NCBI GenBank assembly: GCA_000004695.1
Contig: CM000154.2
Span: 5,056,001 to 5,120,000, forward strand
Direction of reading: 5' to 3'
DNA from: Dictyostelium discoideum
Lineage: Eukaryota
Length of the DNA: 64,000 nucleotides
Positions 38,013-40,016 of the stretch are shown in pieces. Under the pieces are notes generated by a model. It was not told the origin of the DNA and searched no databases. It saw nothing but the letters and a program-made list of their open reading frames with translations. Numbering within the stretch: the first letter of the stretch is position 1; each line of letters opens with the position of its first letter. The translations under genes were made by a program, and so were the position numbers.

Positions 38013-40016
38013 ATGATTGTTGATTATCAAGATGTTGATACTGTTATTAGTGGTGTAGATTATTTCTCTTCTTACAATGGCAATATTGAAAATGAAAATT
38101 GTAAACTTTCAGATCTTTTTGAACAAAATGTAAATAATCAATTTTTTCAACCAAATAACACATCACTACCACCACCAACAAATCAACAACCACAACCACA
38201 ACCACAACAATGGGATTTAATGGAAGATGAAAATTGTAATTCATCATTTGAAAATTCACCTCAACAACCAACTTCACCCCTATTAATTTCATCACAAACT
38301 TCATATCCATCTGATTTATCATCAAATTCCTCAATATCTCATAGTCCAATTGAAAATCAATTATTAGATAATAATTTGGATATTAACAATTATTTAAATA
38401 AAATTAATATTTTTAATAATCATTTCCAAAACAGTGATTTAATAAATACAACATTCTTTAATCAATTTGAAAATAATAATTATATTAATAATAATAATAA
38501 TAAAGAAAATAATAGTTATTTTTATAATAACAATGTAAATATTCCAAATAATAATAATCTAAATATAAACAATAATAATAATAATAATAATAATAATAAT
38601 AATAATAATAATAATAATAATAATAATAATAATAATAATAATAATAATAATAATAATAATAATAATAATAATAATAATAATAATAATAATAAAAATACTG
38701 TATATAACAATGTAAATATTCCAAATAATAATAATTTCAATTTAAATTTATCAAATAATAACAATAATCTTAATTTAACAAATAATAATAATAATAAAAA
38801 TAGTGTAAATAATAACAATGTAAATATTTCAAATAATAATAATAATAATAATTTCAATGTAAACTTATCAAATAATAATGTAAATATATCAAACATACCA
38901 ATTTCAAACTATTACCAACAAGCAGCGCAAACTATTTTTGATGATAATTTTCAAACAATTCAATTTAATAAAGAGTATCCACTGAATGAACATATATCTC
39001 AATCAACAAATAAAAGAATGAAGATTTCTCATCATTCCCATTCACTATCAAATAACAATGAAAATAGTTTATCTCAACCTTATTTTAATAATAATAATAA
39101 TAATAATAATGAAAATGAAAATGTATATAACATTGTAAATGAACAAAATCCAACCTTTAATCCTAATCAATCCAATACACATCAACAACAAGAAGAACAA
39201 TATCAACAACATGAAGAAGGACAAGAAGAAAAAGAACATGAAGAAGAAGAAAAATATCAAAAACAAAAACCAAAAATTGAAATTGAAGAATTAATTAATA
39301 TTAATTTAATAAAAGAAAAGATTGAAAAATTAAAGAATAAATTTGAAAATGAAAATGTAATTTGTAGTGAATTTTTAGAAAAGTGTTTTAAATTTTCAAG
39401 TTTTCCAATATTTCCAATTGTTGAAAGTAAATTAAAATTTTATCAATTTGAAATTGATTTTAGTTTTAGTAGTTATATTGAATCACAAAAATTGGATAAA
39501 ATTGGGTTACCATCATTTAAAAGACCAGTACAATTTTTAAATACATTTTATACTCAAGAAATTGTAAATTTAGATCAGGAATTAATCACTCGTTCACAAC
39601 CAATACATGATTTCATTGAATGTATCTCTTTAATTCGTCCATTATTATCATTATCATCATCATCATCATCATCATCATCATCATCATCACCATCATCATC
39701 CAATGAATTGAATTCAAAGCTTAATATGGTTCAATCGGTTTTCAATGTTGTAAAATCTTATCAAAAAACAAATACTGCAAATGTTATACTACAAGTATTG
39801 AAAAAGTATGCAAAAGAATTTAAAAGTCGTCGTATCCTCTCTGAGCAGCAAGAAACTAATATGAATCTTTGGTTTGATGCTCATGTAAATAATCCTTATC
39901 CTGAAGAAGATGAAAAAGTAATTCTTGGTGCTGTAAATAATTTATCAAAATCTCAAATTGATAATTGGTTTGGTAATAAACGTATGAGAGATAAATCAAA
40001 TAAAAAGTCTTTATAA
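38013..40016 (+). CDS. TALE-class homeobox transcription factor with extreme poly-Asn tract
   Basis: 667-aa single ORF. The C-terminal homeodomain carries the three-residue loop extension typical of TALE proteins (NLWFDAHVNNPYPEEDEK....IDNWFGNKRMR). The rest is low-complexity, including about 48 consecutive Asn encoded by (AAT)n at 38571-38690 and a poly-Ser tract. Confidence 0.75.
   Translation: MIVDYQDVDTVISGVDYFSSYNGNIENENCKLSDLFEQNVNNQFFQPNNTSLPPPTNQQPQPQPQQWDLMEDENCNSSFENSPQQPTSPLLISSQTSYPSDLSSNSSISHSPIENQLLDNNLDINNYLNKINIFNNHFQNSDLINTTFFNQFENNNYINNNNNKENNSYFYNNNVNIPNNNNLNINNNNNNNNNNNNNNNNNNNNNNNNNNNNNNNNNNNNNNNNNKNTVYNNVNIPNNNNFNLNLSNNNNNLNLTNNNNNKNSVNNNNVNISNNNNNNNFNVNLSNNNVNISNIPISNYYQQAAQTIFDDNFQTIQFNKEYPLNEHISQSTNKRMKISHHSHSLSNNNENSLSQPYFNNNNNNNNENENVYNIVNEQNPTFNPNQSNTHQQQEEQYQQHEEGQEEKEHEEEEKYQKQKPKIEIEELININLIKEKIEKLKNKFENENVICSEFLEKCFKFSSFPIFPIVESKLKFYQFEIDFSFSSYIESQKLDKIGLPSFKRPVQFLNTFYTQEIVNLDQELITRSQPIHDFIECISLIRPLLSLSSSSSSSSSSSSPSSSNELNSKLNMVQSVFNVVKSYQKTNTANVILQVLKKYAKEFKSRRILSEQQETNMNLWFDAHVNNPYPEEDEKVILGAVNNLSKSQIDNWFGNKRMRDKSNKKSL
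38571..38690. repeat. (AAT)n about 40 units, coding (poly-Asn) inside the homeobox gene
   Basis: Perfect aataataat run, in frame as Asn. Confidence 0.9.

Follow-up and report, generated by a model that had tools for sequence, protein, structure and literature searches.

Proteins of both the PBC and the MEIS class are known in Amoebozoa (PMC3957477), and a deep PBC/KNOX-MEIS dyad has been proposed (PMC6219170). The TALE homeodomain factors listed for Dictyostelium discoideum are Hbx3, Hbx4 and Hbx9 (PMC11586516). DdHbx-3 has been described as a probable PBC-class TALE gene with Gly at homeodomain position 50 (Gly50) in the supplement of Clarke et al. 2013, where Bürglin used the Gly50 criterion for this gene, where the MEIS-like role was given to Hbx4 and Hbx9, and where a PBC-B-like similarity was noted in dictyostelid relatives. 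Expression of hbx3 is upregulated by phagocytosis (PMC2443395). The window studied here, meaning the whole stretch of DNA that was analysed, comprises 64,000 nucleotides of the D. discoideum contig CM000154.2 (assembly GCA_000004695.1, positions 5,056,001 to 5,120,000, forward strand), and all coordinates below are positions within it. At 38013..40016 on the + strand, TAA included, it holds a complete, single-exon coding sequence for a PBC-class TALE homeobox protein with a run of 41 Asn residues. We consider it quite probable that this is a dictyostelid PBC-class (PBX/Extradenticle-type) TALE gene, most likely hbx3 or its direct ortholog, and that its Asn run is a neutral, lineage-specific microsatellite.

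The coding sequence was delimited from the list of open reading frames (ORFs), the sequence itself, the Pfam homeodomain match and the literature. It runs without interruption from the ATG at 38013 to the TAA at 40014-40016 and encodes 667 amino acids (aa); the limits and strand given in an earlier reading of this DNA, called the original prediction below, are exactly those of the ORF. An A-rich leader precedes the ATG, and the G+C content of the ORF is 21%, against 23.7% for the window. Asn accounts for 174 of the protein's 667 residues and, when composition is taken by segment, 62% of residues 121-300. The N-terminal ~420 residues are non-conserved and of low complexity, and the conserved functional core is formed by the C-terminal ~220 residues, in which a divergent PBC-like helical domain directly abuts the TALE homeodomain. 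The protein ends in KSNKKSL, about 6-8 residues beyond the homeodomain.

The homeodomain (aa 604-661; 39822..39995, +) is recognised by Pfam Homeodomain (PF00046, 2.5e-8, 58 residues on 55 model positions) and, over aa 620-659, by Pfam Homeobox_KN (PF05920, 1.8e-13), as well as by sequence matches in the PDB and by Foldseek. In a MAFFT alignment, in which Antp, En, MEIS1 and KN1 were entered by hand and Exd was taken from the PDB search, a three-residue gap is needed in Antp and En between helix 1 and helix 2, and none in Exd, MEIS1 or KN1. The loop extension is V625-N626-N627, followed by P628-Y629-P630 (39885..39902, +; alignment with Antp/En and Exd), and it aligns without gaps to Exd. The homeodomain thus belongs to the TALE superclass, as originally predicted, and both motifs named in that prediction are present, NPYP at aa 627-630 and WFGNKRMR at aa 652-659. 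When all PDB sequences were searched, the best matches were Extradenticle and PBX1 (E 2e-11 to 2e-10), with a gapless alignment of the homeodomains ('nlwfdahvnnpypeedek...nwfgnkrmr' against 'neyfyshlsnpypseeak...nwfgnkrir'); the matches to PKNOX1 (4e-9) and MEIS (1e-5), and then to TGIF and MATalpha2, were weaker. In the core of the recognition helix, W48-F49-G50-N51-K52-R53-M54-R55 (39966..39989, +; alignment with Exd/PBX1), the sole difference from WFGNKRIR of Exd/PBX1 is the exchange of Ile54 for Met, and the octapeptide is unchanged in the P. violaceum ortholog described below. Since WFGNKR with Gly50 is common to Exd/PBX1, the top matches, this helix is of the PBC class and is not unusual, as it had been called; a literature text search for WFGNKRMR matched no paper. 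In the AlphaFold2 (AF2) model, which is numbered so that residue 1 is aa 421, the three-helix fold of the homeodomain is formed by model residues 191-203, 212-221 and 226-246, and a Foldseek comparison with the PDB gave a root-mean-square deviation of 0.7-1.0 A from Exd/PBX1 at 42-45% identity. The former wording MEIS/PBX/KNOX-like can therefore be kept for PBX, given Gly50 and the top position of Exd/PBX1 in both sequence and structure searches, but not for MEIS and KNOX.

Upstream of the homeodomain, hhalign, profile searches and the AF2 model point to a divergent PBC-like domain at ~aa 450-600 (39360..39812, +), which corresponds to the C-terminal part of PBC-A together with PBC-B. The comparison was based on a 30-member alignment (A3), consisting of the C-terminal region of the window protein and 29 proteins picked from profile-search matches. 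When 6 dictyostelid sequences and 21 PBC-type proteins of A3 were realigned separately and compared by hhalign with the homeodomain removed, a match of 98.9% was obtained (E 2.3e-17, 134 columns), against 5.5% for the reversed template and at most 0.9% for ten column-shuffled templates; the window sequence alone gave 96.4%. The hidden Markov model of the PBC set scores 28.6 bits on the upstream domain. The Pfam PBC family (PF03792) is matched by 23 of the 30 members of A3. A protein of Clastostelium recurvatum (P0026) matches it at 8.5e-26, and two of the dictyostelid orthologs give subthreshold matches (6.7e-4 and 0.017) at model positions 92-179, which is the PBC-B half. With genuine Pfam PBC proteins the alignment is continuous, starting at profile position ~18-40 and extending through the homeodomain, and one alignment spans both domains in the window protein and its non-metazoan PBC/PBC-like relatives. 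The conserved landmarks in A3 are IDFSFSSYIESQKLD, FYTQEIxNLD, an Arg-Pro and SYQKTNTANVILQVLKKY, which runs into the homeodomain. Only the C-terminal part of PBC-A can be aligned, namely a preceding helix and the motif IDFSFSSYIESQ, as against the LMRLDNMLLAEG type, and upstream of this part there is no conservation.

The AF2 model of aa 421-667, for which the alignment was supplied, has a mean predicted local distance difference test score (pLDDT) of 86.2 and a predicted template modelling score of 0.80. It contains N-terminal helices, a short helix over the motif IDFSF, and two long helices (model residues 80-121 and 142-179) with a disordered loop between them. Foldseek against the PDB matched the homeodomain only and found no solved structure resembling the upstream PBC-like domain, which by analogy with known PBC proteins is presumed to be a protein-interaction domain. 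The loop between the two long helices carries a (TCA)12 repeat encoding 12 Ser (aa 548-559; 39654..39689, +), placed from the codons, alignment A3 and the AF2 model. This run sits after the conserved Arg-Pro and is an insertion, being a gap in all 29 other A3 sequences, and the part of the loop that spans it (model residues 128-140) has a pLDDT below 50. The Ser run is thus a case of a folded domain tolerating an internal microsatellite.

Searches with the full-length protein were swamped by poly-Asn words (8000 candidates, 0 significant). With the C-terminal 233 aa as query and the Ser run removed, a word-indexed search returned P. violaceum CYY_008485 as the sole relative (56% identity, E 5e-55), the similarity being restricted to the last ~230 residues, and no closer homolog of the homeobox protein was present in the protein collections searched. 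An exhaustive HMMER search, run with a profile of two sequences, showed that orthologs occur across Dictyostelia; the full-length matches added in this way were Heterostelium album XP_020426741 ('putative homeobox transcription factor'), Acytostelium subglobosum XP_012753104, a Synstelium polycarpum protein and a EukProt protein. Over the C-terminal 230 residues the window protein shows 37-51% identity to the dictyostelid orthologs, which have lengths of 205-467 aa, some of them being transcriptome-derived and perhaps incomplete models. The gene is most likely D. discoideum hbx3 (DdHbx-3) or its ortholog. In a literature alignment badly distorted by optical character recognition the DdHBX-3 row starts with 'YAKFK', which fits YAKEFKSRR of the window protein. 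The name hbx9 was rejected, as Hbx9 has Thr50 and Hbx3 has Gly50. A paralogous dictyostelid TALE protein, P. violaceum CYY_005129 (P0046), has WFSNKRSR (Ser50) in its recognition helix and was aligned over the whole PBC-like and homeodomain profile; it may be the 'divergent PBC' gene of the Hbx12 type to which Bürglin refers.

By a codon-by-codon count, the Asn run (aa 186-226; 38568..38690, +) consists of one AAC and, after it, a perfect (AAT)40 (38571..38690). The earlier estimate of about 40 AAT units was accordingly right, the number being exactly 40, but not that of about 48 consecutive Asn, because the uninterrupted run is 41 residues long and its neighbours are broken by Leu, Ile and Lys. 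The tract is no accident of composition; it forms the perfect core within a degenerate AAT microsatellite array that encodes the Asn-rich region (38472..38852, +), for which Tandem Repeats Finder reports a period of 3, 128 copies and 68% matches. Downstream of the run the same program finds a 27-nucleotide minisatellite of ~5.8 copies (38708..38879, +) encoding nine-residue units of the type NNVNI[SP]NNN. The motif YNN(N)VNIPNNNN occurs on both sides of the Asn run, and its position suggests a higher-order duplication around the microsatellite. In five dictyostelid orthologs the longest Asn run is at most 7 residues and there is no long Ser run either, and because the Asn-41 and Ser-12 runs are absent from these orthologs we regard both as lineage-specific. 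The Asn-41 tract is the longest coding homopolymer within the window, which holds 16 perfect AAT-family tracts of at least 8 units. The longest perfect triplet repeat of the window is a (TTA)50 at 49262..49411, which exceeds the coding (AAT)40, lies outside any open frame of at least 100 codons and is probably intergenic. Further long perfect tracts are (TAA)36 at 60747..60854, (TAT)33 at 51186..51284 and (TAT)31 at 55952..56044.

The genome of D. discoideum has 3064 perfect triplet repeats of at least 20 units, 1423 coding sequences carrying 26 or more perfect triplet units and more than 2966 Asn or Gln tracts of at least 20 residues (Scala et al. 2012, PMC3460934). In dimA, a developmental transcription factor, (CAA)63, (AAT)45 and (AAT)31 are present (PMC3460934). 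The Asn tract, an in-frame perfect (AAT)40, belongs to the coding triplet microsatellites of D. discoideum under a definition of at least 20 units; in view of the 1423 coding sequences and of dimA, the statement that it would be among the longest even in Dictyostelium went too far. Coding loci of 27-40 units have been genotyped, and the gene diversity of coding repeats was ~0.78 and did not differ from that of matched non-coding repeats, a result that the authors explain by mutation and drift (PMC3460934). Their regression (y = 0.0093x + 0.5435) extrapolated to 40 units gives a diversity of ~0.92, the tract at 38568..38690 not being among the 49 + 8 + 8 loci that they genotyped. By analogy with the genotyped loci, length polymorphism at the 41-Asn tract is likely, but of the kind generic to such repeats.

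The preferred interpretation has a protein part and a repeat part. PBX proteins prefer sites with a TGAT-like core. If the window protein behaves as PBX/Exd do, its homeodomain would bind DNA, probably at a TGAT-like core, by means of Asn51, Arg55, Gly50 and the Arg5 arm, and the PBC-like domain would contact other proteins, most plausibly the MEIS-like TALE factors Hbx4/Hbx9 of the same genome. The AAT microsatellite would have expanded in this lineage through replication slippage, with the 41-Asn run as its perfect core. The run, situated in the disordered N-terminal half of the protein, would be tolerated because it lies outside the folded domains. Its length is probably polymorphic, as at comparable Dictyostelium loci, and it would have no specific function.

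One alternative concerns the repeat count itself, since 40 units could be an artefact of assembly and the true allele could be shorter or longer. Long perfect repeats are described as a recognised cause of assembly errors (PMC6868369), and neither a sequence look-up nor two metagenome scans gave an independent read or contig over the tract. However, the tract is in frame with unique and continuous flanks, and repeats of 27-45 units have been confirmed by genotyping at many comparable loci (PMC3460934), so we regard an artefact as unlikely. We find it quite unlikely that the Asn tract is a functional tuning element, in which slippage variants alter how active, soluble or condensed the transcription factor is and in this way modulate development. 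A perfect 40-unit tract is slippage-prone, as the high extrapolated diversity indicates, N/Q tracts are reported to be enriched in regulators (PMC9234386), and the solubility of prion-like proteins shifts during development (PMC13093961). On the other hand, the tract and the entire Asn-rich region are missing in all five orthologs, coding repeats vary at least as much as matched non-coding ones, a pattern that the authors attribute to drift (PMC3460934), and with more than 1400 coding sequences having comparable tracts nothing marks out the hbx3-like locus. The modulating role that the original prediction had attached to repeat length is thus left unsupported. That the gene belongs to the MEIS/KNOX (MEINOX) class, with which it has the TALE loop, the PYP and the PDB matches to PKNOX1 and MEIS in common, is so improbable as to be effectively refuted by Gly rather than Ile at position 50, by Exd/PBX1 matches that are stronger by ~2 (PKNOX1) to 6 (MEIS) orders of magnitude, by the lack of any Meis_PKNOX_N or KNOX match at E <=1 in Pfam together with an upstream domain that matches PBC, and by the placing of the MEIS-like role with Hbx4 and Hbx9 in the literature.

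Several points weigh against a PBC-class hbx3 with a neutral Asn run, the reading that we prefer. The PBC-A N-terminal half was not detected in alignments of the homeobox protein, and the window protein itself has no Pfam PBC (PF03792) match, its PBC assignment being argued at the level of profiles. Animal PBX structures have an extra helix C-terminal to the homeodomain, and this helix is absent here. The name hbx3 follows from class features and the literature and is therefore a probable one. The PBC protein of Acanthamoeba bound neither DNA nor a MEIS partner in vitro (Hudry et al. 2014, PMC3957477), and given this result the partner model may not hold in Amoebozoa. For the repeat, two metagenome scans, one for the sequence flanking the repeat on the right and another based on protein patterns, gave no second allele or relative, and the over-representation of N/Q tracts in regulatory proteins leaves some room for function (review PMC9234386).

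The PBC-class reading can be carried further, in a form that we hold to be doubtful. Hbx3 might be the PBC half of a surviving ancestral PBC/MEIS dyad, its divergent PBC-like domain heterodimerising with Hbx4 or Hbx9 and so switching a life-cycle or feeding-to-development programme, with the lineage-specific Asn and Ser expansions, one of them in a loop of the PBC-like domain, tuning this interaction between strains.

Elsewhere in the window there are housekeeping genes for a major vault protein, glycogen phosphorylase, a Nup155-type nucleoporin, NDUFV2, S-adenosylmethionine (SAM) synthetase and a DHX8-type helicase. Nucleoporin_C and Nucleoporin_N (Nup155/Nup133-type) are found in adjacent minus-strand ORFs, 21769..24957 and 25591..26571, and presumably belong to a single gene as two exons with an intron between them. 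Two runs of 21 Gln (6626..6688 and 6740..6802, +) lie in the open frame 5975..6970, where the ORF starting with ATG is 6119..6973 (284 aa). For the ORFs 42174..44774 (+, 866 aa) and 60925..61896 (+, 323 aa) there was no Pfam family at E <=1e-4. An exact-sequence look-up of eleven window ORFs in a collection of 15 billion proteins gave 1 match, a SAM synthetase fragment (46284..47288, -) found in the Logan runs SRR26869257, SRR26869258, SRR26869267 and SRR28564542.

Earlier publications already cover the gene, its TALE nature and its probable PBC class, and the occurrence of long, polymorphic Asn tracts in transcription factors of Dictyostelium is well documented. The present analysis adds evidence from profiles and a structure model that the upstream region of the window protein itself is a PBC-like domain; it also corrects the 'unusual helix' to a PBC signature and places a Ser microsatellite in a loop of a conserved domain. 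Overall, Hbx3 is a reasonable candidate for asking whether PBC-MEIS pairing predates animals.

Among described repeats, the closest to the Asn tract are the coding AAT/CAA microsatellites of the dimA type, both being perfect triplet tracts of tens of units in a developmental transcription factor, read as Asn. For those of the dimA type a high polymorphism among wild clones has been reported, and the 41-Asn locus is outside the genotyped set. With D. discoideum Hbx3 and the dictyostelid orthologs the window protein has in common the Gly50 TALE homeodomain and 'YAKEFK' before it, whereas orthologs such as XP_020426741 and CYY_008485 are without the Asn-41 and Ser-12 runs. Compared with PBX1-4, Drosophila Extradenticle and C. 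elegans CEH-20, it has the same TALE loop, PYP and WFGNKR[I/M]R helix, and likewise a PBC-B-like two-helix domain abutting the homeodomain. It differs from the animal PBC class in the loop (VNN against LSN), in position 54 (Met against Ile), in having no detectable PBC-A N-terminal half and in having no post-homeodomain helix; to our knowledge no Hox partners have been reported in Amoebozoa. The same layout, a PBC-B-like domain followed by a Gly50 TALE homeodomain, is found in Acanthamoeba ACA1_119990, in the Clastostelium recurvatum protein and in the algal PBX-Red/Glauco/GLX (Joo et al. 2018), and the Acanthamoeba PBC protein is also reported to be without PBC-A (PMC3957477). The dictyostelid PBC-like domain is far more divergent than that of these relatives, Pfam PBC being non-significant for the window protein and highly significant for that of Clastostelium. 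The combination of a PBC-B-like domain with a Gly50 TALE homeodomain fits the ancient PBC/MEIS dyad that has been proposed.

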